Positions 19,228 to 44,011 are shown, numbered from the stretch's first letter. The stretch is 64,000 nucleotides of DNA from Planctomycetota bacterium (GCA_039821235.1 JBCBOO010000003.1:20169-84168); one strand, 5' to 3'. Program-made: numbers and translations. Notes: generated from the sequence alone by a model not told the origin.

Positions 19228-19320
19228 CTGGCTGACTCTCGCCAAGCCCGCGAGATGCGATAGACTCCGGTTTCACGCGATGCTCGCGTGCCGTCTTTTC
19301 TTTCGCAGAGGGTTGGATCG

Positions 19321-19794: not shown

Positions 19795-19984
19795 TCGTAC
19801 TGACTGGTTGCACCCAGCCCGTGGGGGTCATTCACGTGACCTTCGCATTGGAAATTGGTCTGGCGGGCATTTCAACTGGGATGTGAAAATATGCCGGTTG
19901 TATTGGATATCGGTGCCCTTTCTTGCCGATGAAGCTCAGCGATGAAGGATTCGCCGATTCACGTGCGCATGGAGGCGCACCGAG

Positions 19985-20905
19985 ATGGTTCTATTTTCAA
20001 TCAAGATCTTTAACAACCTGCGCAAGGCAATCGCGGGGCGGCGTTACCCCGCGCAGCTCGCCGGCGGACTCGCGCTTGGGGTGCTGTTGGGCGTGATTCC
20101 CCACGGCAACTTTCTTGCACTGGTCGTCTTGATGGGCGTGCTGTGTTTCCAGGTGAACCATGCGTTCTTGGCCGTGGTCGCGATTGCCACCGCGTTTTGC
20201 GCCACGCACCTTGACCCTTATTCACACGAAGTCGGCAACTATTTGCTAACGCATCCGACCGGCTACGCGATCGCCAAGCAGGCGTGGACGTATCCGATGG
20301 TGCCGTGGATGGAAATCAACAACACCGTCGTGCTGGGCAGTTTCGTCATCGGCCTCGCGGCCGTATTGCCGCTGTTCATGCTGACGTACCCGTTCTTCAA
20401 GTTGTTTGTTCCCGCCGAACCGGTGAGCGACGATGCGGAAGCCGTTTCGTTGGTGGCGGAAGAGAAAACCGAGACGGCAACCAAACCGCGACGCATGATC
20501 CAACCGGTAGTGAACGACGAAACCACGGAGTCGCGCCCGCTGCGTGCTCCGAGGCCAGCGGACTTTCGCTCGCCCCGAGGAACTGCGCCCGCCGTTGCCG
20601 CGACATCCGAACCGGTTTCGATTCCGGTCGATCAAGTGCTTGGCAGCGAACCGGACTTCATGCCCATTGATGGGCCTTCGGTTCCCGCCGACCATCCGAA
20701 CAACCAGTTGCCAACTCGAGAGCAAATGGTTTCCGTTGACACGCGAATCGACGTCATTCGGATGAATGACTATCGCGAAGACAACGGCGAGAACGTGGAG
20801 GGTGAAGGCTCGTCTCAAGAGCCGCCACAAAATATGGACGAAGCGCTCGCATTCTTGCTTCAACAACTGCGTCAAACTCAGAAACAACGGAAGGCGGCAG
20901 GATGA
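19985..20905 (+). CDS. TIGR03546-like (DUF2062-like) membrane protein with long disordered C-terminal extension
   Basis: The N-terminus LRKAIAGRRYPAQLAGGLALGVLLGVIPHGNFLALVVLMGVLCFQVN matches my recollection of the TIGR03546 family. It is paired with the next gene. Confidence 0.55.
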   Translation: MVLFSIKIFNNLRKAIAGRRYPAQLAGGLALGVLLGVIPHGNFLALVVLMGVLCFQVNHAFLAVVAIATAFCATHLDPYSHEVGNYLLTHPTGYAIAKQAWTYPMVPWMEINNTVVLGSFVIGLAAVLPLFMLTYPFFKLFVPAEPVSDDAEAVSLVAEEKTETATKPRRMIQPVVNDETTESRPLRAPRPADFRSPRGTAPAVAATSEPVSIPVDQVLGSEPDFMPIDGPSVPADHPNNQLPTREQMVSVDTRIDVIRMNDYREDNGENVEGEGSSQEPPQNMDEALAFLLQQLRQTQKQRKAAG

Positions 20906-26305: not shown

Positions 26306-28285
26306 CTATGCCGGAGGCGGAGGCATCGTGTCCGGCATCGACTTGTGATGACGCAGGATCTGTTTCGCTTGTTGGTGCAATTCGCGTCTTGTTCGATTGA
26401 TCGCAAGCTTCAGGTCGGCGTCCGTCCAATCGAGTTTCTTGGCAGCTTGGCTGAGCAGTTTTTTCTCAGGTGCCGAAACCTTCCCGTCGACAAGAGCCGC
26501 CCGCAGGAGATGGTCCATGAAAACGTTGGCTTTGTCAGGGTCGTCGGGCAATTCGATTTCCGTGTCACGCGCCACGGCCGAAGAAAAAATCTTCTTGAGT
26601 TGTTCATTACTTAGTCCTCGTTTCTTACCCATGTCGATGATCAGCTCGCGTTCCTTGACGTGAAGCTCTCCGTCGGCGGCCACGAGACGACAAAGCGAAA
26701 TGAGCAATTCGGGTTCGTTCAAGAATCGGTCCGCTTCCAGTCTTTCCGTGCCTCCAGCAATCTCGACGCGCTCATCCTGTTTGTCTTCGCGGATCAATTC
26801 GGAAACGAGTTTGTGGTCCAGAACATCTTCGAGCACCCAGTCGGCGTTGCCGTCATTGATTGCACTGTTGCAGAACCCACACGCGTCCTCCGTCCCGATC
26901 TCGATGGGGGCGCCGCAGCCCGTGCAACTGAATGATGCGAACGCCATTTCCGCTTTGCTGTTCACGCCCGCCTTTCGCTTGAGGACCATGACGTGCGAAT
27001 AAATGCGTTGATGGCCGAAGAGTTCCGGTGAACGATGTTCGCCTTGTGCCGGCGTAGCGGACCATCGGATCAAGACAAAGATACGATCGAACGCGTCTTC
27101 TTTGGCGGGCTTGCATGCGACGACTTCGACGACACCGACCGCGGGGGTTTTCCAAAACCAGCCCTTGCCGCGGTTCCAACGTTTTGGGATTTCGGAGACA
27201 TCGCGGTGCAGGACCGGCTGGGCGAGTTTTGGATCACTGAAGTAAGTCGACATCATGCAACGCCAATAAACCACCGAGGCGCGGTCTTCGAGGTGTTGGA
27301 AATTCAATCCTGCATCACCTTGTTGCAGTTCATCCCAACCCGCAACGGAGTGTTGCGCCGGAGGAATGACCCATTCCTCGACTTGGGTGATTTCGGACAG
27401 CACCCAATCATGCTGACCGGAACTGACGATCGTCTTGCACTGGGGGCAACGTGCTTTGTCAACGATATCAATGGGTCCTGAGCAATTAGGGCAGCGGCCT
27501 TCCATCACGGAGGCTTGCGGGTTGGTGGTCACGCCGGGCCGCCGGCTGAATGACCAGACCTCGCTGAACCGAGTGGGGGTTTTGTCGCTGTTGCCGGAAA
27601 CACGTCGACCGGAATCCAAGTCTTCGTTGAAGCTGATCGCGGATGCCGTGATCATCACGTGGATCGTGTCAAAGTGTTTGTCCGCGGTGACACAAACGAT
27701 CTCCGAAGACTCGATCGTGACGTTACGCATTCGGTTACGAAGGTTCTCCGCCTTTTGCATCGCGATGTAGAGTTCAAACCGCTCGTGCACACCATCGGAG
27801 ATAAAGGCGCGGCACGGCCGGAGATCTTGTTCGCTCCAGGCGTCTTGCGTGACCAAGAAAGCGTTTTGAAGACGTTTGATAAAAACGTCGAGAGAGAATT
27901 CCGGATCTCGTTGTTGGATCTGTTGAAGGGCGGCCATTCTCAGGTCCGCCTCTTGGACCTTTCGTCCACGCCGAATCGTTCGTGTGATGCGGTAGTCGTT
28001 GCCGGTTTTGGATCCGTAGTAGAAGAAAGCCGCAACCGCGATCCAAATCGGAATCGAAAAATAGGGGTACGCGAATGTCAGACGGATGAGCAGCACGATC
28101 AGCTCGCCGCCGCCGTCTCCTCCACCTCCGCCGCCGCTGAAACCACCGCCGCCGCTAAAACCGCCGCCACCTCCTCCTCCGCCCCCGAAATTGCCGCCTC
28201 CTCCGGCCTGAGCTAACAGATTTTCAAACATCAACAAGCTTGCTTCGTGCACCGATTTGCCGTGGGGTTGAAATTCGCTAAACAC
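26306..28285 (-). CDS. multidomain protein: Gly-rich N-terminus, TM, two Tim44-like modules each with a CxxC...CxxC ribbon, TerB-like C-terminus
   Basis: It has the GGGNFGGGGGGGGGFSGGGGFSGGGGGG tract (nt 28105-28207) and TM segments (ELIVLLIRLTF..., IPIWIAVAAFFYY). The ribbons are CPNCSGPI...CPQC and CTGCGAPI...CGFC. The TerB-like repeats are AADGELHVKERELIIDMG and LVDGKVSAPEKKLLSQAA. An alternative start is at 28231. Confidence 0.6.
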   Translation of the reverse strand: MFSEFQPHGKSVHEASLLMFENLLAQAGGGGNFGGGGGGGGGFSGGGGFSGGGGGGDGGGELIVLLIRLTFAYPYFSIPIWIAVAAFFYYGSKTGNDYRITRTIRRGRKVQEADLRMAALQQIQQRDPEFSLDVFIKRLQNAFLVTQDAWSEQDLRPCRAFISDGVHERFELYIAMQKAENLRNRMRNVTIESSEIVCVTADKHFDTIHVMITASAISFNEDLDSGRRVSGNSDKTPTRFSEVWSFSRRPGVTTNPQASVMEGRCPNCSGPIDIVDKARCPQCKTIVSSGQHDWVLSEITQVEEWVIPPAQHSVAGWDELQQGDAGLNFQHLEDRASVVYWRCMMSTYFSDPKLAQPVLHRDVSEIPKRWNRGKGWFWKTPAVGVVEVVACKPAKEDAFDRIFVLIRWSATPAQGEHRSPELFGHQRIYSHVMVLKRKAGVNSKAEMAFASFSCTGCGAPIEIGTEDACGFCNSAINDGNADWVLEDVLDHKLVSELIREDKQDERVEIAGGTERLEADRFLNEPELLISLCRLVAADGELHVKERELIIDMGKKRGLSNEQLKKIFSSAVARDTEIELPDDPDKANVFMDHLLRAALVDGKVSAPEKKLLSQAAKKLDWTDADLKLAINRTRRELHQQAKQILRHHKSMPDTMPPPPA

Positions 28286-30518: not shown

Positions 30519-33497
30519 ATGTTGCGGCTATACTCACGGGGTTGTGGCATTCCCCGCCTCCCCCACCTCCCGCTTGCCATGTCGCTCCATTCCTGTCCTC
30601 TTCCCGAGCGAAAGACAACCTCTGTCGTCCAAACGTCTGTCTTCAGCGAAAGTTCACGTGATGACCGATTATGTGCATCGGTTGTCCCACGTTGGCCCAT
30701 CTTTCGATTGGGATTCGCCGCCTGGTTGTTGCTGAGTGCACTGTCGTACGACGCGGTTGCTGGCGAAACCGGTTCCTTGGATTACGCGTCCGAGATCTAC
30801 CCGATCTTGGAAACGTACTGTGTCGCCTGTCACACAGAGGACGATCCGGAGGGCGGACTGGTGATGACCGATTTCAGTTCGCTGATGCGTGGTGGCGATA
30901 CGGGATTGGCGATCACGGCCGGTAATGCCGGAAGCAGTCGACTGTATTTGATGGCGTCTGGCAAACTCGATCCCGTGATGCCGCCCGATGACGCCGAGCC
31001 GCCCACGGACGCCGAACTCGAGTTGCTCGCCCGCTGGATCGATCAAGGCGCCATCGGTCCGACCGGCTCGCCGCCGATCAAGCACAAGCTCCGCACCCCC
31101 AAGATTCCTCCCGCGCGTGATGTTTCGCGACCGTTGACCGCGATCGCGATGTCGAGCTCCGGTGACATGACTGCTCAGGCGAGTTTCGGTCGCATCGAAT
31201 TGTTGCCGCCGACTGGTGAACCCACCGTGATCGATGACTTGGAAATTGGCAAAGTCAATTCGCTCGCGTTTTCACCAAGCGGTAACATCCTCGCGGCAGC
31301 AGGTGGTTTGACCGGCGCTTCTGGACGGATTGCTCTCTTCGATGTTGCGACGGGGATGCCATCCGGCGAATTCGTCACACGGGGTGACGCGTTTTACGCC
31401 GTCGCATTTCATCCTTCGGAGCCACTGATCGCGGCGGCGGGCTATGACCGTGTGATCCGTGTTTGGAACACGGGGACGAATGAGCTGGCTCGCGAATTCC
31501 GCGGGCACAACGGCGCGATCTTCGATCTGGCGTTTTCACCCGAAGGAAGCGTGCTGGCCAGTGCCTGTGCCGATGAAACTGTCAAGCTATGGAGCGTTTC
31601 TACGGGCGAACGACTCGATACGCTCGGTCAGCCGGAGGGCGAAGTCAACGCGGTCGCCTTTTCGCCGGATGGACGACAAGTCATCGCGGCGAGCGCCGAC
31701 AACCGTCTTCGTGTCTGGTCACTTCGATCCAGAGATCGCTCCGCGATCAACCCTCTGGTCGCCACTCGATTCATTGACGAAACGCCACTCGTGAATTTTG
31801 CGATCACTCCCAGCGGCAAACACTTGGTCACGCTTGCAAGTTCGGGCAACCTGAAAGTGCTGCAGACATCGGACTGGCAGTCAATCGCAACCCTTCCGCC
31901 TCTTCGAGAGAGCGGCACGGATCTGTTTGTTTCCAGGGACAATCAAACCGTCGTCGTCGCAATGATGAATGGTGAACGGGCCACGAGAACGTTGCCGGTT
32001 GCCAATCACGCGAACGAGATGGAACCTGTATCGTCCGATGGTCTGGCATCGACCCGGCGCGTTTGGCTGGACCTTGGCGAACCGAACAAGTTAGACGAGT
32101 CCAAACTGGAGTCCTCCGGCGGCCTTGCCAATCAGGTTGAACGCCACGTGATGATTGATGGAACGATTGCCGAGCCCGGCGAGATTGATCGCTACAAGTG
32201 GTCTGCAAGAAAAGGAGAGTTTTGGGCGATCGATGTGGATGCGGCTGCCGGCAGTGATATCGATCCCTTTGTGTCCGTCACCGATGCAAAGGGGGAGCCG
32301 ATCGTACAAGTTCGCCTTCAAGCGGTACGCGACTCGTACTTCACCTTTCGAGGGAAGAACAGCGATCAAGTCAATGACTTTCGAGTCTTCAACTGGCAAG
32401 AAATGAAGCTCGGTGAATACTTCTACGCGGCTGGCGAAGTCACTCGTCTGCAACGACACCCACGCGGCCCCGATTCGGGATTCAACATGTATCCGGGGCA
32501 GGGCAAACGATGGACTTACTTTGGCACCAGTGGCACGACACACGCGTTGGGCGAACCAGCGTATATCGTTCGTGCCTTGCCGCCAGGAACGAAACCGCTC
32601 TCCAACGGCTTGCCGGTTTTCGACATTCCTTACGAAAATGATGATGACCCAATGCGGATGGCGGGCAAGAACGCGAGGCTGTTGTTTACCGCACCCGCCG
32701 AGGGTGACTACTTGGCATGCGTTTCCGACACACGCGGTGAAGGAGGCGCGGGGTTCCGCTATCAACTCCGTCTTCGACCCGCGGCGCCGAGCTTTCAAGC
32801 CAGCACCGCAAAAATCAAAGCTCCTCTACGCTCGGCCGTCGGCCGCGAGTTCCAGCTGACCGTCAATCGGATCGATGGCTTTGATGGACCCGTGACTTTC
32901 GACATCCAAGAGCTGCCTCCTGGTCTGGTTCACAACTTTCCCGTGACCGTCGAAGCCGGTCAGCGTCACGCGATGGGAATGATCTGGGCATCTCCGGATC
33001 AACCTGAATGGACGTCACCCTTGGAGCCACGATTGACGGCGCGGGCGAAGATCGGCCAACGAATCGTTGAACGCTCCGCGGGCACGATCGGAAAGTTGAC
33101 CTTTGATCCCAAGCCGACCAATGCGATCGTCCAAATTCTGCCCCGCGGTGAAAATCTCAATGGCAGTCAGAATTGGACCCTACGCCTTCGGCCGGGACAG
33201 ACCGTTTCAGCGGTCGTCGCGATTGAGCGGCAAGCGTCTTTCACGAAAGAAGTCTCCTTCGGCAAAGAAGACGCCGGCCGTAACGCGAGTCAGGGCGTCT
33301 ATGTTGACAACATCGGCCTGAATGGACTGTTGATCCTGGCGGGTGCTGACGAGCGTGAGTTCTTTATCACGGCCGATGAAACCGCGAAGCCGAGCCGAAG
33401 GTCGTTTTTCTTGAAGGCGAATTTGGATGGCGGAATTACCTCTCACCCGATTACCGTAGAGGTTATCGGGTCGAATGAAATCGCTCAAACGGAATGA
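30519..33497 (+). CDS. planctomycete cytochrome-c domain (PSCyt1) / WD40 repeat / C-terminal beta-rich protein
   Basis: It has the CxxCH-containing motif ILETYCVACHTEDDPEGGLVM and LELLARWIDQGA. Multiple WD40 blades follow (AFSPSGNILAAAG, FHPSEPLIAAAGYDRVIRVWN, GHNGAIFDLAFSPEGSVLASACADETVKLWS, RLRVWS). The start is uncertain (30519 or 30579). Confidence 0.8.
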   Translation: MLRLYSRGCGIPRLPHLPLAMSLHSCPLPERKTTSVVQTSVFSESSRDDRLCASVVPRWPIFRLGFAAWLLLSALSYDAVAGETGSLDYASEIYPILETYCVACHTEDDPEGGLVMTDFSSLMRGGDTGLAITAGNAGSSRLYLMASGKLDPVMPPDDAEPPTDAELELLARWIDQGAIGPTGSPPIKHKLRTPKIPPARDVSRPLTAIAMSSSGDMTAQASFGRIELLPPTGEPTVIDDLEIGKVNSLAFSPSGNILAAAGGLTGASGRIALFDVATGMPSGEFVTRGDAFYAVAFHPSEPLIAAAGYDRVIRVWNTGTNELAREFRGHNGAIFDLAFSPEGSVLASACADETVKLWSVSTGERLDTLGQPEGEVNAVAFSPDGRQVIAASADNRLRVWSLRSRDRSAINPLVATRFIDETPLVNFAITPSGKHLVTLASSGNLKVLQTSDWQSIATLPPLRESGTDLFVSRDNQTVVVAMMNGERATRTLPVANHANEMEPVSSDGLASTRRVWLDLGEPNKLDESKLESSGGLANQVERHVMIDGTIAEPGEIDRYKWSARKGEFWAIDVDAAAGSDIDPFVSVTDAKGEPIVQVRLQAVRDSYFTFRGKNSDQVNDFRVFNWQEMKLGEYFYAAGEVTRLQRHPRGPDSGFNMYPGQGKRWTYFGTSGTTHALGEPAYIVRALPPGTKPLSNGLPVFDIPYENDDDPMRMAGKNARLLFTAPAEGDYLACVSDTRGEGGAGFRYQLRLRPAAPSFQASTAKIKAPLRSAVGREFQLTVNRIDGFDGPVTFDIQELPPGLVHNFPVTVEAGQRHAMGMIWASPDQPEWTSPLEPRLTARAKIGQRIVERSAGTIGKLTFDPKPTNAIVQILPRGENLNGSQNWTLRLRPGQTVSAVVAIERQASFTKEVSFGKEDAGRNASQGVYVDNIGLNGLLILAGADEREFFITADETAKPSRRSFFLKANLDGGITSHPITVEVIGSNEIAQTE

Positions 33498-33740
33498 ACC
33501 GCCTCAATAGCATGAGTCCACCGCCGGGCCGGTCGTAAACCGCTGGATTGAGTGGAAAGAGGCAGTTCCGACTTGTACACTGTCGCGGCGGCAACCTGTC
33601 GTTTTAGCGTGGGCGTGAACGGAGCCGTTGCCAAAAATGCGAAGCACTTTTCGGGCCACATGGTTTTGGGACCTGACCCTTTTTCGCTCGACTCCCCCGT
33701 TTGAATCCGGCAACCTTTTAGCATCGAGACCGAGCCGAAC

Positions 33741-35093
33741 ATGCCGATCAAGGCCAAAAGCCACGCGATCACGTTACTCAGCAATGTCACTTGTCCGCAT
33801 TGCTGGCACGAATATGCGCCGGAGGACTCGCTTTGGATTTCAGAGCATCCTGACTTGATCGGCGACGCCAAACTCGGCTTTCAACACGCGAAACGGTTTC
33901 TTCCCAGTCGCTTCAATCCGCAAGGCGATGCCATTGATGAAATGGGGCAAGACGCGACGCGTATGGCGTGTCCGAAATGCCACCTTCATGTTCCCCGATC
34001 GATGAACCAGGTTCCCAGCCTGTTCTTCAGTATCTTTGGTGCTCCGGCGTGCGGCAAGAGCTACTTTCTCACGTCCATGTCTTGGATGCTCCGCCAGACG
34101 CTGCCCAAGCGTTTCGCGGTTTCGCTCAGCGACGTCGACGCGGAGACCAATTCACGGATCCATGAATACGAAGAACTGCAGTTCATGAATCCGGACTTGG
34201 ATTCGCCCGTTGCACTGGCCAAGACGGAGGAACAAGGTGACCTCTACGACACCGTGGATATGGGAGACCACAGTGTGTCGTTCCCGCGTCCATTCATGTT
34301 CAACTTGCAACCGCTGTCCAGTCATCCGCGCTACAAACGCAATCGCGAAATTTCAAAACTGATTTGTCTGTACGACAATGCTGGCGAAAGTTTCTTTCCT
34401 GGCGCGGACAAAACGATCAACCCCGTGACGCGTCACCTGGCTTGTTCAAAGTGTTTGTTTTTCTGTTTTGATCCCACGCAGGATACACGTTTTCGCCGTG
34501 CGTGCGAGGGAAAATCCGAAGACCCGCAAATGGTGTCGCGTACCGCCAGGCTCGCGCGCGAGGCAACGATCCGGCAGGACACCATCCTGTTGGAGGCAAT
34601 TCAACGCGTCCGTCGGCACGCTGGGCTTCGCGACGATGAACTGCACCAACGCCCGTTGGTCATCATTGTGACCAAGTGGGACTCGTGGAAAGAACTGCTC
34701 CCGGACGTTCCCACGGATGAACCCTATTTGCCCATCGAGGGTTCGAAGTTTTGCACGCTTGATTCCGCTCGTATCAAACACGCGTCCGATCGTGTGGGTG
34801 AGTTGATGAGCGACATTTGTCCGGAGATCGTTGCCGCAGCAGAAGGTTTTTCGACCAGCCTGACCTTTATCCCCGTTAGTGCCACGGGCAGTAGTCCGGT
34901 GGTCGATTCCGAATCGGGTTCGTTGGGCATCCGGCCGCGTGACATGCAACCGTACTGGGTCGAGATTCCCATGTTGATGGCACTGCACAACTGGGCGGGC
35001 GGTTTGGTGGGAGCGACAGACCAATTGGGTGGATCCGATTCCGGCATGTCGCTGGAAGACGGTAGATGGATGGCCGAGAAACTGGGCAGCTGA
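33741..35093 (+). CDS. P-loop GTPase with N-terminal 4-Cys zinc ribbon (system gene 1)
   Basis: The ribbon is CPHC (aa 18-21) plus CPKC (aa 77-80). G1 is GAPACGKS (nt 34038-34061). G3 is LICLYDNAGE (nt 34374-34388). G4 is VIIVTKWD (nt 34671-34682). The G5-like motif is PVSATG. Confidence 0.7.
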   Translation: MPIKAKSHAITLLSNVTCPHCWHEYAPEDSLWISEHPDLIGDAKLGFQHAKRFLPSRFNPQGDAIDEMGQDATRMACPKCHLHVPRSMNQVPSLFFSIFGAPACGKSYFLTSMSWMLRQTLPKRFAVSLSDVDAETNSRIHEYEELQFMNPDLDSPVALAKTEEQGDLYDTVDMGDHSVSFPRPFMFNLQPLSSHPRYKRNREISKLICLYDNAGESFFPGADKTINPVTRHLACSKCLFFCFDPTQDTRFRRACEGKSEDPQMVSRTARLAREATIRQDTILLEAIQRVRRHAGLRDDELHQRPLVIIVTKWDSWKELLPDVPTDEPYLPIEGSKFCTLDSARIKHASDRVGELMSDICPEIVAAAEGFSTSLTFIPVSATGSSPVVDSESGSLGIRPRDMQPYWVEIPMLMALHNWAGGLVGATDQLGGSDSGMSLEDGRWMAEKLGS

Positions 35094-37171
35094 TTGATAC
35101 AAGTACCTTGAGCAGCGAACTCCTCTACACATCGGCACCGCAGGGCCTGCGTCATGGCAGTCGCGGTTTTTGCACCGTGCTGACCACGGCGGGCATGCCG
35201 ATCAATGTGATCAGCAAGCTCGAGGCAATTTCCGGTTATCGGCATCTCTTTCAAGCCGGCGGTGGATCTGGACAGAACCCAACCACCTACGCTCATCAGA
35301 TCGTCTCCCTCGGTGGTTTACGACAATCCGTTGTGTCACGGATCGCAGACTATGGCAGCGACTACAGTGGTCGAAGCAACAAGATCGCGCATCATGTTCT
35401 GTTGGAGCCCACTGAAAAACCCGCCGCCGGACCGGCATGGCTTCTGCAGCAACGATCCGTCGTTCGCAGTGAATGGCTGGGCAACTGCGAAACACCGGGG
35501 ACCGGTCCCAAGATTCCTTCGGCGGACCAGACGGCACGCATTTGCACGACTTGGAAAAACGTGACCGGCGACGCGGGCTGGGGTGGCGTGATCGCCGAAG
35601 CGATCGCGTCAGGTGATCCCGAGCCTCTCTGGGTCGTTTTTCCGCTTGCGCATCACGCGCAGCTTTTGGAACTAATGGACGAGGCCATTGCGCTGTTGCC
35701 GCAAGCCAAACGATGGACCGCCACCTTCAATACATTTGCCGCAAACATTCCTCCGGACGCTCACTGCAAAATTCGATTCGTGCCGGCAGGCAGTGAGGAA
35801 GCACGCTTTGCGTCGGGATCGAAGTCTTCCATTGATTTGACGAAGCAGCCCTCGATCACCTCGGCGTCCAACTGGGTGCAGCGGGCGCGCGGACAAGTCA
35901 GACCGCATCTCAGTCACACATCGGCGTCCACCTCCGCCGGTTCCTTTAGCGCTGTTCAGTCCGCCGAGGAAGTCGAGTCGGCGGCATCTTCGTGGGCGAT
36001 CGCAGAAGAAAACCCCGGGCCACCGCCGACCCCTGAGCCGCCCGAGTTGCCTCCCGAGTTGCTGCAGCCAAAAAGCCGGATGCCTTTGTTGATTGCAGGC
36101 GGTCTCGCAGCGGCACTGATCTTGTTGAGTACGACCTGGGTTGTCGCGCGAACGATGGCCGGCCTACCACTGCTGCCCGGTGAAGTGCAGAAACCGCCCG
36201 AGCAGATTTCGCTGCCAAAGCAAGAACCCGCGCCGACGCAAACGCCGGCTCCGCCACCCCTTCCGGCGGAGCCACTTGAATTCAAGATTTACTTGGATCA
36301 AAAACAGCTGCTCGCTTGGGCACTCGAACATCCCGTTGAAGACACCGCGTTTCCCAACCCGATCGAAATTCGGGGTGGGTTGCGGCTGCCGTCGATCATC
36401 GCCGCCGACATCGACGCGGCGGCGGCCCGTGACGATGCGTCTTCGAGTGGCGATGAAGACGTTACCGAACCGAAGCCCGCCGCACCGGAATCGTCGGCCA
36501 CCCTGTACGCTTGGGGCGGAGATGCGAGGTCGTTTGCGGACGCCGAGTCACTGACGGTGCTGACCACACGATTGAGCAACGGTCAGCAGACGGTTTCCGC
36601 CCAGGCGATGCCCGACGTACCCGATGATTTAGCTGGTTCGGTTTACTGGAACCGCGAGCGAGGCGACCTCTACTTTGTGGCGACCCACGACTGGTCCGAA
36701 CCATCGGAGGACTCGTTGGCGGGCGCCTATCGGTCCTTTGCACGTTCAATAGGACGCGTCACCGGGCTGATGTTGTCGATCAGAGAACATCAGGCGGAGT
36801 TGCCAGCGACGTTCCAAAATCTTGCCGAACCTCTGGTCTCCCGAACGCTCCGTGGCGAAGAATCGATGATGCGCGTCTTGATGCGTTCTCCGGAGGCGGC
36901 CAGCTCCATGGCCGAGATTGCTGCGACACTGAGTGATCGCTTGCAGGAGCGCGTCGAGGCGACAACCAAAGCACTCAAGAAACCACAACAGACGCGACTC
37001 GTGCGTCTGGTGGCCGAGTGCGGACAGCTCGTGCAGGCCGCCTCGGATTTGCGCGACGCTTTCGAGCTGCTCAAGCAAGGCCGTTCCATCGAGGTTCCGG
37101 AACTGCAGTTTTTAAATCAGCGCGGGCGAGTGCTCCGTCGTGTTCCCCTTCGCTTTCAACTTTCGTTCTAG
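35066..37171 (+). CDS. GAP1-like (GTPase-associated protein 1 N-domain-like) single-pass membrane protein (system gene 2)
   Basis: The N-terminus is ELLYTSAPQGLRHGSRGFCTVLTTAGMP...LEAISGYRH. Pro-rich linkers flank one TM segment (MPLLIAGGLAAALILLSTTWVVA, nt ~36080-36148). The start is either ATG 35066 (28-nt overlap with gene 1) or TTG 35108. Confidence 0.5.
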   Translation: MDGRETGQLIDTSTLSSELLYTSAPQGLRHGSRGFCTVLTTAGMPINVISKLEAISGYRHLFQAGGGSGQNPTTYAHQIVSLGGLRQSVVSRIADYGSDYSGRSNKIAHHVLLEPTEKPAAGPAWLLQQRSVVRSEWLGNCETPGTGPKIPSADQTARICTTWKNVTGDAGWGGVIAEAIASGDPEPLWVVFPLAHHAQLLELMDEAIALLPQAKRWTATFNTFAANIPPDAHCKIRFVPAGSEEARFASGSKSSIDLTKQPSITSASNWVQRARGQVRPHLSHTSASTSAGSFSAVQSAEEVESAASSWAIAEENPGPPPTPEPPELPPELLQPKSRMPLLIAGGLAAALILLSTTWVVARTMAGLPLLPGEVQKPPEQISLPKQEPAPTQTPAPPPLPAEPLEFKIYLDQKQLLAWALEHPVEDTAFPNPIEIRGGLRLPSIIAADIDAAAARDDASSSGDEDVTEPKPAAPESSATLYAWGGDARSFADAESLTVLTTRLSNGQQTVSAQAMPDVPDDLAGSVYWNRERGDLYFVATHDWSEPSEDSLAGAYRSFARSIGRVTGLMLSIREHQAELPATFQNLAEPLVSRTLRGEESMMRVLMRSPEAASSMAEIAATLSDRLQERVEATTKALKKPQQTRLVRLVAECGQLVQAASDLRDAFELLKQGRSIEVPELQFLNQRGRVLRRVPLRFQLSF

Positions 37172-37180
37172 TCCAACATC

Positions 37181-40090
37181 ATGGCCACGACCGTCGACAA
37201 AATCCGCCGCGCTCTCGAAAAACGAGATGGCATCGCCGAAGAGGAGATGAAACCGCTTGCGGAGGCGTATCGAAAAGAAGTTCAAACCGTCAATCAACGC
37301 TTGGACGACGCGATCATGTTGCTGCGCAAGGGCCTGCGCAGCGAGGCCATTCAACGGGTCGAACTGACTCCCAATGCGCTCGACGCCGCAGCCGAACTGG
37401 AGTTTCCCGAGTGGGACGAGTGGAACGATCTCTTGCAGTTCATGGGCATCCCACTGCCGCCGAAACTCAATCAGGACGACGTCGCGCAAATCAACGAAGC
37501 GATCATTGAGTCTCTACCGCTCGATGCCTTGTTGAAACGGCATCGACGGTTGGCGATCGCGAAAGCTCCCCTGAGCGCCCGGCTTCGCACGCTCCGACAG
37601 ATCGCGCGTGTCGATAGCAACAACGCGGTTTGGATGGACGACATCGAAATCTGGGAGAAAGCCCGCCTCGGCCAGATTGATGCGGAGCTCAAACGAGCGC
37701 TCGACAACGAAGACGCTCGCGTCTTGCAGCAGCTGCACCAGGAACTGACGGGGACGGCGTGGCGAATCCAACCGCCCGGACGGTTGATTGAGCAAACGTC
37801 ATTTGCCGCGGAAACGCATCGACGACAACGTCAGGAATCCGAGCTGTCCGAGCTGGTGCCCGCGATCCAGCAGGCGTTCGAAATCAAAGACGAGGCGACG
37901 GCGCGTTCGCTCCGAACGCAGTGGCAAGAAACCCGCGCCCGCTATGGCGTGGATGTGGCGGGTGGATTGAATGTTCAAGTCGCGACAGCGTTCCAGTGGC
38001 TGGAAGACTTGGATCGCCAAGCGATTATGGAAAGCGAACGCGAGATGGCGGTCGCCAACTTGCAAACCACGTTGCAGTCGGGTGCCTCCAGTGAAGAGGT
38101 CCACGCGGCACTCGATCAAGCCTCGCGATTTGGCCACCCCGTTCCGGACGACTTAGCCGCCCAAGCCGCCGCCCTCGCGGAAGCGCCCGCGAAAAAGGCC
38201 AAGCAAAAGAAGCTACTCTTGGCCGCCGGTGCCGGGGTGGTCGTCATTGGTGCCGCGATCGGCGGCGTGATGCTCATGCTCTCCGCGGGTGCCGAAGCGA
38301 AACGCGAGGAGACGATCACGCAAATGACGCAGTTCGTCAATAACGAACAGTACACCGAAGCGGCGCGATTCTATCAGTCCGTCCAGGCCAACGATCCAGA
38401 AACTGCTTCGTCGCCGAAGATGGTGGCGCTTCAAGCAACGGCTCGAAAGGCCCAGAACGACGAAGCGTACCGGCGAGATCGGTTTGACGAACTACTGGCA
38501 CAGGCGACCAGTGAAGACCCCGCCTTGATCGACCAAGTACTCTTCCCGCAACTGGATGAACTCGCCGCCACCGATGGCGAACGCGCTCGTGTGAACGATC
38601 TGCGAAGACGAAAGTCGCAGTACGTGGAAGGCGAGTCGCTGCGGCAGAGCGACAAGCTGATTGAAAAGATCGGCCAGCTCCGAACGACATTCGAATCGCT
38701 GCGTTCACGCGGCACATCGGACAGCAATCTGGAAGCGATCCGGCAGTTGTTAACTTCCGTGACCCGGTTGCCCAAACAGTTTCCACTTGCCACCGATGAC
38801 GCGGTCAGCAAACAGGAGACACTGCGTTCTTTGGCGAGCGAGACGCTCAGCGAAATGCGTGACGCGAATCGAATGTCACAGCAACGAGAGGAAGCGATTG
38901 ATTCCCTGGTCAACTCGCGTTCGATCGAAGTCTTCTCCGATCGCATGAGAGAATTTGCAACTCGTTCGATTGCCCAGACCGGGTTCGCCGAGTTTTCGAC
39001 GGTGTTGAACGAAGAAGACCATTGGTTGGCGATCGATCGAACGAACGCATGGCTGACGTTGTTACAGCAAAAGCTGGCCAACGGAGTCACCGCCGGGGAA
39101 GCAGCGAGTCTGATCGAGTCACGGAATCTACTGGCGTCAGAGGTTTATCCCAATCCGGCACTCGCCGCCATGCCCACGTTTGTGGACGCGATGGAAGAAA
39201 TTCAGGGTCGTCGCGCCATTCTTGACGAGACATTTAACCGGATCGCACGGCACCCAATCGCACGCGCGGTGACGCTGCCCATTCGCGAATCCGGTACGAG
39301 GACGGGTTATCTGATCTACAAGACCTACGCGGAAGAAAATGCGTCACGATTGAAGCAACAGAACAGCATTGGCATCTCGATTTTGTCCGATGAATTGGGG
39401 GGCGTCAGGAATCGCGGTTTTCAGGGCCCCCTTCCCGAAATCGTCAACGAGCCCTTGGACACCATTCGTGATGCGATCAACAACAAAGCCAAAAAGGCCA
39501 TTGAATTCGACCAGCAATGGGAGATTACATTTCTAGTCGAAGTCAGCCAGGTGATGCGTCGACCGAATCTTTCGGGCGTCCATAAGGAGTGGTTGATCTA
39601 CCAACTGTTGGACGCAGCCACACAGGGCAGTGAGTCATTGCGTGCGATGATCCCGCAAACTCTGCAGGTCCTTCAGCGGCGTGCAAGCGTTCGCGACAAA
39701 TGGTTCGAACCACGCGAATTCGACGACGCGTTGAATTCAGAACTGGAACGTACGCTTCGAACCGAACTCAACCTCGCCTACAAACGGTTCCAGAGCCCGC
39801 TTGCCGAATTCCAGGGAGTCGCCGATTCGGAGATCCAGTGGATCGGATTCCTGGCTCGAACGACCGGTGGCGAAATCGAGTACCATCCGCGAGGCCAGTT
39901 GCCAGAACGTAACGGAAAACTCTTTGTCTCCGGGCCACCTCGCGAGGGTGCCAGTTCGTCTTCCATTCTTACGATTGGAGAGTTGCGGGACGGTCACGTG
40001 GTTTTGGATCCCAACCCCATCTTTCAAGTTCCCGGACGACCGGTTTTTTGGTTTCCCGACCAAACCTCTGACTCCGACAGCTCGCCTTAA
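37181..40090 (+). CDS. 969-aa predominantly helical single-pass membrane protein (system gene 3)
   Basis: It starts 9 nt after the gene 2 stop. It has a long charged helical N-half, a Lys-rich stop-transfer (AKKAKQKK) plus TM (LLLAAGAGVVVIGAAIGGVMLMLSAGA, nt ~38213-38290), and ~600 aa after the TM. No catalytic motif was seen. Confidence 0.5.
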   Translation: MATTVDKIRRALEKRDGIAEEEMKPLAEAYRKEVQTVNQRLDDAIMLLRKGLRSEAIQRVELTPNALDAAAELEFPEWDEWNDLLQFMGIPLPPKLNQDDVAQINEAIIESLPLDALLKRHRRLAIAKAPLSARLRTLRQIARVDSNNAVWMDDIEIWEKARLGQIDAELKRALDNEDARVLQQLHQELTGTAWRIQPPGRLIEQTSFAAETHRRQRQESELSELVPAIQQAFEIKDEATARSLRTQWQETRARYGVDVAGGLNVQVATAFQWLEDLDRQAIMESEREMAVANLQTTLQSGASSEEVHAALDQASRFGHPVPDDLAAQAAALAEAPAKKAKQKKLLLAAGAGVVVIGAAIGGVMLMLSAGAEAKREETITQMTQFVNNEQYTEAARFYQSVQANDPETASSPKMVALQATARKAQNDEAYRRDRFDELLAQATSEDPALIDQVLFPQLDELAATDGERARVNDLRRRKSQYVEGESLRQSDKLIEKIGQLRTTFESLRSRGTSDSNLEAIRQLLTSVTRLPKQFPLATDDAVSKQETLRSLASETLSEMRDANRMSQQREEAIDSLVNSRSIEVFSDRMREFATRSIAQTGFAEFSTVLNEEDHWLAIDRTNAWLTLLQQKLANGVTAGEAASLIESRNLLASEVYPNPALAAMPTFVDAMEEIQGRRAILDETFNRIARHPIARAVTLPIRESGTRTGYLIYKTYAEENASRLKQQNSIGISILSDELGGVRNRGFQGPLPEIVNEPLDTIRDAINNKAKKAIEFDQQWEITFLVEVSQVMRRPNLSGVHKEWLIYQLLDAATQGSESLRAMIPQTLQVLQRRASVRDKWFEPREFDDALNSELERTLRTELNLAYKRFQSPLAEFQGVADSEIQWIGFLARTTGGEIEYHPRGQLPERNGKLFVSGPPREGASSSSILTIGELRDGHVVLDPNPIFQVPGRPVFWFPDQTSDSDSSP

Positions 40091-40139
40091 AGTCGTCTCG
40101 TCTAAGGCTCTCCTCTTCCATCCGACAAGCAACAATCGC

Positions 40140-41060
40140 ATGCCCGAGTTTGAACGCGTTTTTGTTCGTTTCCGTGGCCGCACCATCGGCCCCTTCACGC
40201 CCGACAAGATCACGGACATGGTGCGCCGCGGCCAAGTCACGCGGATGCACGAACTGTCCGGCGACGGTCTGAGCTGGATGAAGGCGGATGAATTTGGCAA
40301 CTTCTTTCCCAAGGCGGCTCCGGCGGGAAGTGTCGCCGGTGACATGGCGGCATCAGCCTCCTCCATCCCGCCCGGGGCAGACGGTGGCACCGCTCCGATT
40401 GCCAACGAGAATGCAACGGCGCAGTGGTACGCCCACGTTAACGGTGAGAAGCAGGGGCCCGTTTCGATGGACCAGATGCGACTTTATTGCGAAGCGAACA
40501 TTTTGAAGAAGGATTCGCTGGTTTGGAAAAGTGGCATGGAGGCTTGGAAGCCCGCCGCAGAAACGTTGCCCGAGTTGTTCGGTACGCCGGCCGCCGCACC
40601 GGGAGGAACTGACACTGCGACACCCGCCGCTGCGACCGCCGAGGCCACCACGGGCGGCGAAGCTGCTGGGACGCTAACTGCCGAGATCTCCAAGTACCAC
40701 GCGTTGGTTCTCGCATTCGGAATCGGGTTGCTGGTGCTTTCGGCGATGTTGGTGATTGCACAAATCCTGATCCTGAATCAGGGTGGGCGACAGCTCAAGT
40801 CCACGCCGATGGCCGCCGCCGTCAAAATCTCGCTCGCCGGTGCATTGGCCGTGTCCGGCATTATGGCAGTGCAAGCGGCAAGCAAACTGAAGTCGGCGCT
40901 CGAGTCGGGTTCGGCGATCCAATCGCTGACGGCCGTTCGATCACTGAATCAATTTTGGCTTTACGCTTCTATCTCCCTGCTCGTTTGGATCGCGATTCTC
41001 ATCCTGGTGGGGATCTCCGCTGTCGCGATGAATGTACCGGTTTTGAAGGTCATTACTTAG
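40140..41060 (+). CDS. double GYF_2 (DUF4339)-domain protein with 3-4 C-terminal TM helices (system gene 4)
   Basis: It has two GYF_2-like modules (FVRFRGRTIGPFTPDKITDMVRRGQVTRMHELSGDGLSWMKADEF; WYAHVNGEKQGPVSMDQMRLYCEANILKKDSLVWKSGMEAWKPAAE). TM segments follow (LVLAFGIGLLVLSAMLVIAQILIL etc.). The internal ATG was chosen because the longer ORF overlaps gene 3. Confidence 0.7.
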   Translation: MPEFERVFVRFRGRTIGPFTPDKITDMVRRGQVTRMHELSGDGLSWMKADEFGNFFPKAAPAGSVAGDMAASASSIPPGADGGTAPIANENATAQWYAHVNGEKQGPVSMDQMRLYCEANILKKDSLVWKSGMEAWKPAAETLPELFGTPAAAPGGTDTATPAAATAEATTGGEAAGTLTAEISKYHALVLAFGIGLLVLSAMLVIAQILILNQGGRQLKSTPMAAAVKISLAGALAVSGIMAVQAASKLKSALESGSAIQSLTAVRSLNQFWLYASISLLVWIAILILVGISAVAMNVPVLKVIT

Positions 41061-41380
41061 ACAACGGCACTTGCGTTGGCACAAGTGTCACGGCCGTTGC
41101 AGGCGGACGGATGGACGTCCAGGAATTCAGGAAATGGTGAGGAAGAGAGTGGAGAGAGGCGGGGCTGGGTCGATAGCCGTCTCTACGCAGGAAACGGTTG
41201 TCCAATGGCAACGTTGCCTGCGCAGCTCATTCGGTGAAATGAACGGTCGTGTCGGTGAGTGTTGAAATCAACATCGCGAAATGATCGAGCGAGTGCTCTC
41301 CGGCACAAGTCACCTCCAACGCGGCATCAGCGAATGAGTGCTGGCAACAACCCTTCCAATAAAATCCATGGAGACTCACG

Positions 41381-41977
41381 ATGCGTCGTGTAATCATTCC
41401 AGCCCTGTTGGCCGTCGCAATGGTCGCAGGCACTTCGTCGAACGTTCAAGCGTTCGGCCTCTTCGGCAAATTCTGTAAGAGCAGCTGCGACACCGGTTGT
41501 GCTGTCGAGCCTGCTTGCGGCTGCGAAGTCGCAATGGAACCTGCTTGTGGCTGCGAAGTCGCAATGGCTCCCGCTTGCGGATGCGAAATGGCTCCCGCAC
41601 CTTGCTGCGACAGCGGCTGTGGAGCTCCTCGTGGCGGACTGCTCGCCAAGTTGTTCGGCAAGCGTGGCGGCGGCTGCGACAGCGGTTGTGCTGCACCGGC
41701 TTGCGGTTGCGAAATCGTCGAGCCCGCTTGCGGTTGCGAAGTCGCAATGGAGCCTGCTTGTGGCTGCGAAGTTGCAATGGCTCCCGCATGCGGATGCGAA
41801 GTCGCTGCTCCTTGCTGCGACAGCCCTTGCAAGAAAAAGCCATTCGGTCTCCTTCGCAAGCTGTTCAGCTGCAAGAGCTCGTGCGACAGCGGATGCGCTG
41901 TTGAGCCCGCTTGTGGATGCGAAATGGTCGCTCCGTCATGCGGAATGGAAGCTGCACCCGCTTGTGGCTGCCACTGA
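41381..41977 (+). CDS. secreted cysteine-rich PACGCE-repeat protein
   Basis: GGAG lies 8 nt upstream of the ATG. The signal peptide is MRRVIIPALLAVAMVAGTSSNVQA. The mature part has 33 Cys in 198 aa, 8x PACGCE plus a terminal PACGCH, and three modules starting FG(L)L..K(L)F..C.SGC. Confidence 0.7.
   Translation: MRRVIIPALLAVAMVAGTSSNVQAFGLFGKFCKSSCDTGCAVEPACGCEVAMEPACGCEVAMAPACGCEMAPAPCCDSGCGAPRGGLLAKLFGKRGGGCDSGCAAPACGCEIVEPACGCEVAMEPACGCEVAMAPACGCEVAAPCCDSPCKKKPFGLLRKLFSCKSSCDSGCAVEPACGCEMVAPSCGMEAAPACGCH
41507..41800 (+). repeat. intragenic duplication: 81-nt block (41507-41587) repeated at 41720-41800
   Basis: Both blocks encode EPACGCEVAMEPACGCEVAMAPACGCE with only a few synonymous or near-synonymous differences. 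Each block is itself built of ~30-nt subrepeats. Confidence 0.85.
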
Positions 41978-42827: not shown

Positions 42828-42868
42828 GTCCACCTGTCGCGAAGACATCATGCTCACCCCGCCACCCG

Positions 42869-43055
42869 TCGCCGCCCACTCCGTGGGCGATTTTCTCTTC
42901 CGCCCACGGAGTGTGCGGCAACGGGTGCGAGCCGTGAAGTCATTCCGCCCCACGGAGTGTGCGGCAACGGGTGTGAGCCGTGAAGTCATTCCGCCCCACG
43001 GAGTGTGCGGCAACGGGTGTGAGACGTGAGGTCATTCCGCCCACGGAGTGGGCAG
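42869..43055. repeat. REP-like array (hairpin plus 3.5 tandem 45-46-nt units) on the 3' side of the RAYT gene
   Basis: The hairpin is cgcccac-tcc-gtgggcg (42873-42889). Units ccgcc(c)cacggagtgtgcggcaacgggtg(t/c)gag(c/a)cgtga(a/g)gtcatt lie at 42900-42944, 42945-42990 and 42991-43036. A partial unit follows, ending in the perfect hairpin cgcccac-gga-gtgggc. Confidence 0.85.
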
Positions 43056-43086
43056 CAGTGAAGGATTTCGGTCCACGGGTGCGGCC

Positions 43087-43755
43087 TCAGAACTTTCGTT
43101 CGGATCTTCGGTAAAGGTATTCTCCGGGACGCAACTTTGCCTTAACTGGATTTTCTGCGATGTAGCGGCGCAGGTAGTCAAGTTGCGATTCACTTCGTAC
43201 GAGATGATCGAACGGTTCTTCTTGCCAAAAGTCCCCGCGGCGACCGAGGAGACGATTGATCTTGGTTGCGGTGAACCGTGTCCACGACGTGCATTGTCGT
43301 CGCATCGAAACCGAGTCCGGAAAAACCACCAAGCAGTGAGCATGGTTTGGCATCACGACGTAGTCACCCATCAAGTAGCGGTCGTCATCAAAGAAGCGAA
43401 ACGCGTCCGAGACGATTTGAGCGAGTTCCGGACGCCGCAGCGGACATTCCCCGTGACAACGGTCGAGTTCGATTTCCTTGAGCCGCCGAAATCGGCGATC
43501 AAAGGCGTGCCGCTGCTGTCTTGATAGCTGACGGACTCCGTCCAGCCAATGTTCGCTGTAGAGACCGATGGAGTGGAGGTATGCTAGCCGTTCGCGATCC
43601 CACGCCTCCAGCACGTCCTTCGGGAGCGAATCTGCAAGACGGATTGTCAGGAACACAATCGCTCCGTCTTGCATCCAATGCGGACGCATGCCTTCGGCGA
43701 TGTTGACTTCGGATTGACGATCAAGGAATAGGCCCTGTTCGGCTTCATCCGCCAT
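43087..43755 (-). CDS. REP-associated tyrosine transposase (RAYT; IS200/IS605 Y1 HUH family)
   Basis: The HUH motif is YVVMPNHAHCLVVF. The C-terminal Tyr motif is SQLDYLRRYIAENPVKA. The gene is flanked on both sides by the same REP-like repeats. Internal ATG 43755 was chosen. Confidence 0.85.
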   Translation of the reverse strand: MADEAEQGLFLDRQSEVNIAEGMRPHWMQDGAIVFLTIRLADSLPKDVLEAWDRERLAYLHSIGLYSEHWLDGVRQLSRQQRHAFDRRFRRLKEIELDRCHGECPLRRPELAQIVSDAFRFFDDDRYLMGDYVVMPNHAHCLVVFPDSVSMRRQCTSWTRFTATKINRLLGRRGDFWQEEPFDHLVRSESQLDYLRRYIAENPVKAKLRPGEYLYRRSERKF

Positions 43756-43815
43756 TCCAGTGCTCTTCTCTAAATTCCGTTTCAAGTGTGTGTCGCTGCC
43801 GCGAAGATATCGTAC

Positions 43816-43985
43816 CTGTCGCCGCCCACTCCGTGGGCGATCTGTGATGACCGCCAATTTTCGCCGCTAACTGTCGCCGCCCACTCCGTGTGCGGCAACG
43901 GGTGTGAGACGTGAGGTCATTCCGCCCACGGAGTGTGCGGCGACGGGTGTGAGCCGTGAAGTCATTCCGCCCAGGGAGTGGGCGG
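43816..43985. repeat. REP-like array on the 5' side of the RAYT gene
   Basis: ctgtcgccgcccactccgtgggcga lies at 43816-43840. The second copy runs into a unit at 43871-43921. A further unit lies at 43922-43966, with a terminal hairpin ccgcccagggagtgggcgg at 43967-43985. Orientation matches the 42869-43055 array. Confidence 0.85.
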
Positions 43986-44011
43986 TATCTAGACGGCGTC
44001 ATTGTGGTGAC

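Follow-up and report, generated by a model that had tools for sequence, protein, structure and literature searches.

Four adjacent genes in a 64,000-nt stretch of DNA from a Planctomycetota bacterium (GCA_039821235.1, JBCBOO010000003.1:20169-84168; this whole stretch is referred to as the window) raise the question of whether they form one functional system, and whether such a system would be an immune device or a part of the cell-envelope machinery. The reading favoured here, held with moderate confidence at most, is that the four genes constitute a DO-GTPase/GAP1-N2 module of the Pirellulaceae, which performs GTPase-gated sensing across the envelope and belongs to envelope physiology. The four open reading frames (ORFs) are co-directional, lie on the plus strand within positions 33741-41060 and are designated g1 to g4:

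33741-35093, plus strand: g1, 450 aa, a cytoplasmic zinc-ribbon and TRAFAC-type GTPase of the DO-GTPase kind
35066-37171 (ATG start, 701 aa) or from the TTG at 35108, plus strand: g2, a bitopic GAP1 protein
37181-40090, plus strand: g3, a bitopic helical protein of 969 aa without a named family
40140-41060, plus strand: g4, 306 aa from the ATG at 40140, with two cytoplasmic GYF_2 domains and a polytopic membrane region
33498-33740, plus strand: the upstream intergenic region of 243 nt, the presumed promoter site

The coordinates, gaps, overlap and tight junctions given for these co-directional ORFs in the original prediction, which was made from the DNA alone, were all recovered in the ORF check. 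Genes g2 and g3 are 9 nt apart, and a gap of 49 nt separates g3 from g4. If g2 starts at the ATG at 35066, it overlaps g1 by 28 nt; the TTG at 35108 lies 15 nt past the stop codon of g1. The TTG is the better-supported start and probably the true one, because the homologues open with 'MSxELLYTSAP' and because residues 1-14 of the ATG form are modelled with a predicted local distance difference test (pLDDT) score <50. The public annotation of the identical 701-aa protein takes the ATG at 35066, and the residue numbers of g2 given below refer to this form. The ORF of g4 is open from 39801, and the ATG at 40140 is the earliest start codon past the stop of g3; the alignment of its orthologues begins at residue 1 in close loci and at residues 3-5 in distant loci.

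That the four genes belong together is shown by their relatives. The related loci comprise 23 from a scan in which each species was represented by one genome, and five further places from exact-protein look-ups; among named genera, the closest are Stieleria, Roseiconus and Rhodopirellula, which belong to the Pirellulaceae. In all 22 loci that were long enough, g1, g2, g3 and g4 occur in the same order and orientation (identity of g1 57-90%), and shorter contigs agree with this order. None of the genes flanking the operon in the window recurs in the related loci. Since the order is kept in 22 of 22 loci while the flanks are not shared, the four genes travel together whatever their surroundings and are a functional unit, as the prediction of an operon-like unit had assumed.

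The transcript ends are not defined by the sequence. Scanning for consensus sites yielded neither a sigma-70-type promoter, so that the promoter was not located, nor an excess over chance of terminator-like sites on the plus strand inside the operon, and the hairpin after g4 (41062-41099) folds at the level of shuffled sequence. This imperfect hairpin had been pointed out as following the block; with a z value of -0.65 in comparison to shuffled sequence and no T-run, it does not indicate a terminator.

The first protein, g1, had been described as a zinc-ribbon GTPase with the motifs G1, G3 and G4, and these are indeed present:

33792-33980, plus strand: split zinc ribbon, a single site of four cysteines, C18-x2-C21 ... 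C77-x2-C80 (CPHC at residue 18, CPKC at residue 77)
34038-34061, plus strand: G1/P-loop motif GAPACGKS, residues 100-107
34359-34388, plus strand: G3/Walker B motif LICLYDNAGE, residues 207-216, with the family-typical E216
34671-34682, plus strand: G4 motif TKWD, residues 311-314, the guanine-specificity motif

Additionally, an SAT motif occurs at residue 380. In an alignment of 58 proteins, which includes 57 relatives at 34-61% identity, C18, C21, C77, C80, G100, G105, K106, D212, G215, K312 and D314 are invariant, and E216, T162 and S380 are kept in ≥90%. No second conserved cluster of cysteine or histidine residues was found in this alignment, and hydropathy gave no transmembrane segment in g1. 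Judged by these motifs, g1 is a zinc-ribbon GTPase with the full G-motif set and the Walker-B glutamate of the DO-GTPases, and is predicted to hydrolyse GTP. The family comprises 1,134 clusters at 50% identity (E ≤1e-3), and for some close homologues a PF19975 match is available in precomputed form. The nearest solved sequences by profile are EngA/Der, which match weakly (3e-4) over the P-loop and NKxD regions.

The assignment of the second protein as GAP1, which the earlier reader had proposed from its opening residues, is borne out by Pfam. The protein g2 matches GAP1-N2 (PF20013) at residues 17-135 with 80.2 bits (cut-off 24; E 1.9e-22) and GAP1-M (PF20014) at residues 162-248 with 48 bits (cut-off 24; E 1.5e-12). 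A GAP1-C globular domain was not found, as no further Pfam match occurs at E ≤1. Together with the AlphaFold2 (AF2) model, which has a mean pLDDT of 84.3, the following parts are distinguished:

35114-35470, plus strand: GAP1-N2, residues 17-135, beta-rich, cytoplasmic (Pfam and AF2 model)
35549-35809, plus strand: GAP1-M, residues 162-248 (in the model about 160-275), alpha/beta, cytoplasmic (Pfam and AF2)
36014-36055, plus strand: proline-rich motif PGPPPTPEPPELPP, residues 317-330, from the alignment, a candidate GYF ligand
36080-36160, plus strand: transmembrane helix, residues 339-365 (AF2 helix; hydropathy 342-360)
36161-37168, plus strand: periplasmic domain, residues 366-701 (AF2: beta sheets and a long helical bundle, 404-701)

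The proline-rich motif sits in the cytoplasmic linker about 10 residues ahead of the transmembrane helix, and P320, P326 and P329 are kept in ≥90% of 47 relatives. The linker (residues 286-337) is modelled as disordered, with a pLDDT <50 at residues 286-318 and 332-337 and about 53 on average at 321-330. Such a juxtamembrane motif could bind the GYF domains of g4. The periplasmic domain has neither a Pfam match nor a PDB sequence match, and sequence comparison of g2 with the PDB gave noise only. When the whole model was compared by Foldseek, TagF was the top match (9t0n, E 1e-3, probability 1.0, 311 columns; 6iz8, E 1.8e-2). By the length of the match, this similarity may be assigned to the N2-M head, as a borderline lead. 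Homologues of GAP1 range from 457 to 1220 aa, and this spread is due to their C-terminal parts. A metagenome-assembled genome (MAG) of a marine Planctomycetota bacterium contains proteins identical to g2 and g3 on an 86-kb contig (locus tags AAFV88_00900 and AAFV88_00905).

The third protein, g3, had zero matches in Pfam (E ≤1), NCBIfam and PADLOC. Its architecture was taken from the AF2 model (mean pLDDT 86.3) and hydropathy:

37181-38212, plus strand: cytoplasmic all-helical domain, residues 1-344 (AF2), the best-conserved part of g3
38213-38293, plus strand: transmembrane segment, residues 345-371 (hydropathy 345-363; low pLDDT at 346-370)
38294-40087, plus strand: periplasmic region (AF2: long helices, residues 372-695, then a mixed alpha/beta C-terminal domain, 696-960)

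A KKAKQKK run is located just ahead of the transmembrane segment, and by the positive-inside rule the N-terminus is therefore placed in the cytoplasm. Even in relatives with an identity as low as 24%, the length of g3 stays within 957-986 aa, and most invariant columns are cytoplasmic (N38, G51, L52, R53, E55, H121, R122, R134, D145, W151, D154, R162, E188 and W194). Neither GASH (E ≤0.05) nor fn3 nor another convincing family was found among 37 members of the g3 family. An identification of g3 as GASH was ruled out, since neither g3 nor the 37 relatives have a Pfam match; an FNIII-repeat protein was likewise ruled out, because no fn3 match occurs in g1-g4 or these relatives and the model is helical. 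Foldseek against the PDB gave nothing at E ≤1e-3, and the one nominal match among viral structures (1.8e-4; template modelling score, TM-score, about 0.1; root-mean-square deviation, rmsd, 82 Å) is not meaningful. In both libraries the fold matches were of a generic sort, namely helical or solenoid proteins whose TM-scores lay at about 0.1 or a little above it, and the profile comparison with PDB sequences yielded coiled-coil noise only.

The fourth protein, g4, was confirmed as a protein with two GYF_2 domains and a membrane part: Pfam GYF_2 matches with 5.5e-20 in two stretches, and hydropathy predicts at least three transmembrane helices:

40158-40304, plus strand: GYF_2 copy 1, residues about 7-55, approximate limits read from the sequence
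40425-40562, plus strand: GYF_2 copy 2, residues 96-141, the best-scoring Pfam stretch
40686-41027, plus strand: region rich in transmembrane segments, residues 183-296, at least three helices (hydropathy)

The conservation of these parts differs markedly with their location. Identities to the proteins of the window, averaged for close relatives (Stieleria group) and for distant Pirellulaceae, are as follows:

GTPase, cytoplasm: close 89%, distant 58%
GAP1-N2, cytoplasm: close 70%, distant 55%
GAP1-M, cytoplasm: close 63%, distant 48%
cytoplasmic domain of g3, cytoplasm: close 69%, distant 37%
GYF copies, cytoplasm: close 77-78%, distant 29-38%
periplasmic domain of g2, periplasm: close 33%, distant 13%
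periplasmic parts of g3, periplasm: close 47-51%, distant 19-23%
transmembrane region of g4, membrane: close 48%, distant 15%

The cytoplasmic core is constant, and the extracytoplasmic arms are variable and fast-diverging.

DO-GTPase/GAP1 systems were defined by comparative genomics (Kaur, Burroughs, Iyer & Aravind, eLife 2020; PMC7159879); the linkage of GTPase and GAP1 defines the family, co-evolution was reported for it, and a role in conflict was proposed (PMC7159879). The original prediction had listed four deviations of the locus from this description, and in a comparison these proved to be mostly features of the published subtype. A single GTPase gene is not unusual, as two GTPases occur in only 38% of the systems and 62% have one; membrane-anchored partners are expected, since GAP1 is frequently fused to C-terminal transmembrane segments; a GYF pair fused to a region rich in transmembrane segments is listed among the variable components of planctomycete GAP1-N2 systems; and the missing effector fits the observation that effector domains common to GAP1-N1 systems were found in only few GAP1-N2 systems (PMC7159879). 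The locus essentially is the described planctomycete GAP1-N2 subtype; the class is already known, and the system is not new. It shares with DO-GTPase/GAP1-N2 systems (PF19975/PF19993, PF20013, PF20014) the zinc-ribbon TRAFAC GTPase with the Walker-B glutamate, a hallmark of DO-GTPases (PMC7159879), which is directly followed by GAP1-N2 and GAP1-M. It further shares the C-terminal transmembrane segment of GAP1, the position near the membrane, the planctomycete host, the partner with the GYF pair and the membrane region, and the single GTPase gene.

The real departure from the published subtype is g3. GASH goes with GAP1-N1, and GAP1-N2 systems have an FNIII-repeat protein instead (PMC7159879), in whose place the locus encodes the helical single-pass protein of 969 aa. 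Furthermore, N-terminal zinc ribbons are usual in GAP1-N2 GTPases, which usually have two (60% of all DO-GTPases have one or two; PMC7159879), whereas g1 has one site of four cysteines, a number that this range allows. In g2, the transmembrane helix and the periplasmic domain take the place of GAP1-C, which has no match. Finally, the GTPase of the window scores under the Pfam cut-offs, and the extension of sister loci by stator-like and vWA genes described below is not mentioned in the published study: its text is silent on MotA, ExbB and TolQ, and the supplement text has no GYF, MotA or ExbB entries (PMC7159879).

From these parts, a mechanism can be proposed. The GTPase g1 would act as a cytoplasmic switch cycling between GTP and GDP, with hydrolysis expected from its motifs. 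It would dock on the cytoplasmic N2-M head of g2, as suggested by the strict gene linkage and the co-evolution reported for the family (PMC7159879). The cytoplasmic helical domain of g3 may be recruited to the same platform, which the GYF domains of g4 would join, probably via the proline-rich motif ahead of the transmembrane helix of g2. The periplasmic domains of g2 and g3 would sense or contact something in the envelope and relay this state through the membrane to the platform of the GTPase, or signal in the opposite direction. The module would represent the regulatory and sensor half of a GTPase-gated trans-envelope machine coupled to the proton-motive force, whose motor genes were lost or unlinked in the lineage of the window.

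This sensor-half reading is based on the form that the operon takes in sister Pirellulaceae, since the ancestral form there goes on to encode a MotA/ExbB-type proton channel, a pair of ExbD/TolR-like proteins and a protein with vWA. The four-gene form, in which motor and vWA genes are not present, is that of the window, Stieleria and Roseiconus. An eight-gene form was detected in Crateriforma conspicua, Novipirellula galeiformis, Allorhodopirellula and several MAGs. Here, g4 is followed tightly and in the same direction by a gene for a MotA/ExbB/TolQ channel (PF01618, 4e-12), genes for two proteins with a single transmembrane segment, and a vWA gene (18022-20589 in locus L014, 16126-19693 in L024, 16500-20193 in L025, 17789-21314 in L028 and 17996-21350 in L029). 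The MotA_ExbB gene occurs in 10 related loci, and the vWA gene was called in the four loci with Pfam annotation. The MotA-like channel of the sister loci has 285 aa and a weak ZorA match (3.8e-6), which is confined to the generic channel region. The two small proteins, c9 and c11 (about 275 and 300 aa), have an N-terminal transmembrane segment with an invariant S..F.D......G pattern, behind which lie a coiled coil and then a domain at the C-terminus. An aspartate at the start of the transmembrane helix is a hallmark of the B-subunits of stators. Membership of c9 and c11 in Pfam ExbD was dropped, and both are kept as ExbD/TolR-like by their position, their topology and the invariant aspartate.

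In a neighbour-joining tree of g1, the four-gene form is one clade nested in the eight-gene form; therefore, the lineage of the window has lost the motor and vWA genes or has them unlinked. Stieleria bergensis holds both forms, an eight-gene copy (L023) and an intact four-gene copy (L027). In the former (L023, 8668-10486), an IS3-type insertion sequence element with two minus-strand ORFs interrupts the gene of the GTPase, of which only the C-terminal 182 aa are left.

Several observations weigh against the favoured reading. By itself, g1 reaches 13.4 bits against DO-GTPase1 (PF19975) and 11.5 bits against DO-GTPase2 (PF19993) with a cut-off of 27, so that the profile check of the first gene had a divided outcome: g1 reaches Pfam DO-GTPase2 only via its relatives, as 37 of the 58 aligned proteins match this model (best 5.7e-10) and 5 of 58 match DO-GTPase1 (E ≤1e-3). 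The TagF match of g2 is borderline (TM-score 0.38, rmsd 8 Å), and its aligned residue ranges were not printed. The proteins c9 and c11 have no match to Pfam ExbD. A second copy of the system, a motor gene or a vWA gene was not found in the 64-kb window, and the motor link may not apply here. Zorya defence, too, makes use of MotAB-type stators. A conflict reading is also compatible with the fast divergence of the extracytoplasmic parts, with the paralogues and with the disrupted copy in S. bergensis. Lastly, a literature search found no experimental study of any DO-GTPase/GAP1 member, as the earlier reader had believed.

Nevertheless, an envelope and non-suicidal role is somewhat more likely than a role in abortive infection. 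This preference is based, on the one hand, on the identity of g1 (59-90%) across many genera, the synteny in Stieleria and the housekeeping neighbours and, on the other hand, on the absence of a toxin-like domain, of a PADLOC match and of homologues on plasmids or phages. The flanking genes in the window are of the ordinary chromosomal kind (ligA, asparaginase, bcp and PhoD-like), the locus is syntenic with a stable chromosomal position across Stieleria species, and in Crateriforma the module adjoins ribosomal-protein genes. PADLOC-DB v2 had zero matches for g1-g4 at E ≤1, by which a known defence system was ruled out for these four genes; the earlier statement that no classical effector is encoded was upheld, as neither Pfam nor PADLOC yielded one for the four proteins. 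A tblastn search with g1 gave no match among 72,556 plasmids and none among 50,697 phages, collections in which planctomycete replicons are probably scarce.

A more far-reaching reading is conceivable, although we regard it as rather unlikely. According to it, the module is not immune but the switch and periplasmic arm of an unrecognised trans-envelope machine driven by the proton-motive force, and the window represents a stripped-down paralogous lineage which has shed the motor. The full machine might then, again only tentatively, consist of the GTPase, a TagF-like GAP1, a bitopic protein of 965 aa, the GYF protein, an ExbB-like channel, two ExbD-like proteins and the vWA protein. It could possibly share its design logic with the MglA-GltJ-AglRQS focal-adhesion motor of Myxococcus, and this analogy is held no more firmly than the machine itself.

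The Agl-Glt system of Myxococcus (MglA, GltJ and AglZ; Attia et al., Sci Adv 2024) is an envelope machine with a TolQR-type motor under the control of a GTPase, in which the GYF domain of GltJ binds a proline-rich sequence of AglZ with micromolar affinity (PMC11135422). In outline, both systems have a GTPase switch, a zinc ribbon, a membrane protein with GYF domains, and bitopic proteins with long periplasmic parts. The binding of a GYF domain to a proline-rich partner has its counterpart here in the motif of g2, which is only a candidate, and g4 matches the GYF region of GltJ; one TolQ/ExbB-like and two TolR/ExbD-like stator genes are shared by the sister loci only. The NCBIfam model of GltJ is matched only in its GYF part by the second GYF region of g4 (1.6e-6; 27.5 bits in comparison to a cut-off of 450). 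As far as this match indicates, g4 shares the GYF domain with GltJ but is not a GltJ orthologue. The DO-GTPase of 450 aa differs from the small Ras-like MglA, and the zinc ribbon is located on the GTPase here and on the GYF protein there. Pfam Ras and Roadblock (MglB) have no match on g1-g4, a homologue of AglZ was not detected, other Glt proteins are not evident, and the 64-kb window contains no MotA/ExbB homologue as in the AglRQS-type motor. To our knowledge, gliding of the Agl-Glt kind is not known in Pirellulaceae. The likeness, drawn by analogy, is one of design and not of membership.

Two further systems offer partial parallels. TagF (PDB 9t0n and 6iz8), which acts post-translationally as a regulator of type VI secretion systems (T6SS), is the top fold match of g2 and, as may hold for g2, a cytoplasmic regulator at an inner-membrane machine. 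The score is borderline, g2 has no Pfam TagF match, and TagF is a soluble protein, whereas g2 is anchored in the membrane and has a large domain in the periplasm; T6SS genes were found neither in the window nor in the related loci. With Zorya, the sister loci alone share, by analogy, a channel of the MotA/ExbB type beside non-flagellar partners; they differ in that the MotA-like protein has no long ZorA tail and that equivalents of ZorC, ZorD and ZorE are missing, and the channel gene is not in the window.

As an alternative explanation, the operon might serve conflict or abortive infection. The periplasmic domains of g2 and g3 would detect an invader at the envelope, the GTPase and GAP1 would set the threshold, and the membrane region of g4 would be the effector, which might, for instance, permeabilise or depolarise the membrane. 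This possibility, which we consider less likely but viable, corresponds to the proposal made for the family, in which the protein with the GYF pair and the membrane region is listed as a variable component (PMC7159879). It would account for the contrast between a cytoplasmic core that is constant and extracytoplasmic parts that diverge fast, for the variation in the C-terminal length of GAP1 (457-1220 aa) and for flanks which vary between lineages. The two paralogous systems of S. bergensis, one of them inactivated by the insertion sequence, suggest dispensability, and the MotA-like gene of sister loci weakly matches ZorA models. However, g1-g4 contain no domain that can be recognised as a toxin, nuclease, protease, TIR or SLATT, the four proteins have zero PADLOC matches, and the membrane region of g4 has no similarity to known pore-forming effectors. 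Besides, g1 is better conserved than defence islands typically are, and its inheritance is wider and more stable, housekeeping genes surround the locus, and the tblastn search with g1 gave no plasmid or phage homologues.

The surroundings of the operon bear on this question as well, because the original prediction had inferred an accessory neighbourhood from a gene for a REP-associated tyrosine transposase (RAYT), with its repetitive extragenic palindromic (REP) units, and a repeat-protein gene. Both are real; the inference drawn from them is weak, as the RAYT gene is 2 kb from the operon with two other genes in between, the flanks are ordinary and the position is syntenic in Stieleria. The RAYT gene (43087-43857, minus strand) matches its NCBIfam model with 2e-15, which is under the model cut-off, and is bordered on both sides by arrays of palindromic REP units of about 46 nt (42863-43056 and 43814-43986). 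The repeat protein (41381-41977) has 198 aa, an N-terminus resembling a signal peptide and cysteine-rich repeats of 10 residues (EPACGCEVAM) with a DNA period of 30 nt; it belongs to no Pfam or NCBIfam family and has no homologue in the related loci. Upstream of the operon, a co-directional gene (30519-33497) encodes a protein of 992 aa with PSCyt1 (planctomycete cytochrome c) and WD40 domains, which is not kept beside the operon in any relative. Between ligA and the asparaginase gene, a protein of 659 aa is encoded on the minus strand (26306-28285), in which a Tim44-like domain is combined with a weak TerB match, an unusual pairing.

In Stieleria and Roseiconus, the GTPase and GAP1 could also be the input or output device of a transmembrane signalling module which includes an upstream extracytoplasmic function (ECF) sigma factor and a Ser/Thr kinase with tetratricopeptide repeats (TPR). 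This appears improbable. In most four-gene loci, co-directional genes for an ECF sigma factor and a kinase-TPR protein of about 1000 aa do precede g1 (8 of the 10 loci L002-L011, plus L027; 5789-9819 in L003, with equivalents in L002-L009, L011 and L027), and a kinase/phosphatase theme was described for actinobacterial GAP1-N2 systems (PMC7159879). In the same group, g4 is followed by two genes without a known family (about 880 and 440 aa); the former, c5 in Stieleria, was ruled out as a paralogue of g3, because there is no similarity. In the window, however, neither the sigma and kinase-TPR genes nor these two downstream genes stand beside g1-g4. The PSCyt1/WD40 protein is found upstream instead, and the only kinase-like match (4139-4846) is about 29 kb off and unrelated. 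The eight-gene loci likewise have no ECF sigma and kinase genes. ECF sigma-kinase pairs are very common in planctomycete genomes, and given this abundance the adjacency could be a coincidence.

That the four genes are unrelated neighbours without a functional system, as one might argue from the promoter and terminator that were not located, is extremely improbable and effectively refuted by synteny, namely the same order with tight junctions and changing flanks in all 22 informative loci, and the linkage of GTPase and GAP1 defines the family (PMC7159879).

For genome annotation, the identification of the module as such is an ordinary result, since Pfam models exist and UniRef already names a 'GAP1-N2 domain-containing protein'. 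New are the confident models of g2 and g3, the borderline TagF-like head and the candidate GYF ligand, the conservation of the cytoplasmic parts in comparison to the divergence of the periplasmic ones, and the derivation of the four-gene form from an eight-gene form with stator-like and vWA genes. The DO-GTPase/GAP1 family is large and known only from comparative genomics, and the locus represents a compact and well-conserved four-gene version of it. If confirmed, the stator link in the sister operons would tie this family to envelope machines driven by the proton-motive force, and would bear on the question of whether its members are immune devices or cell-envelope machinery.

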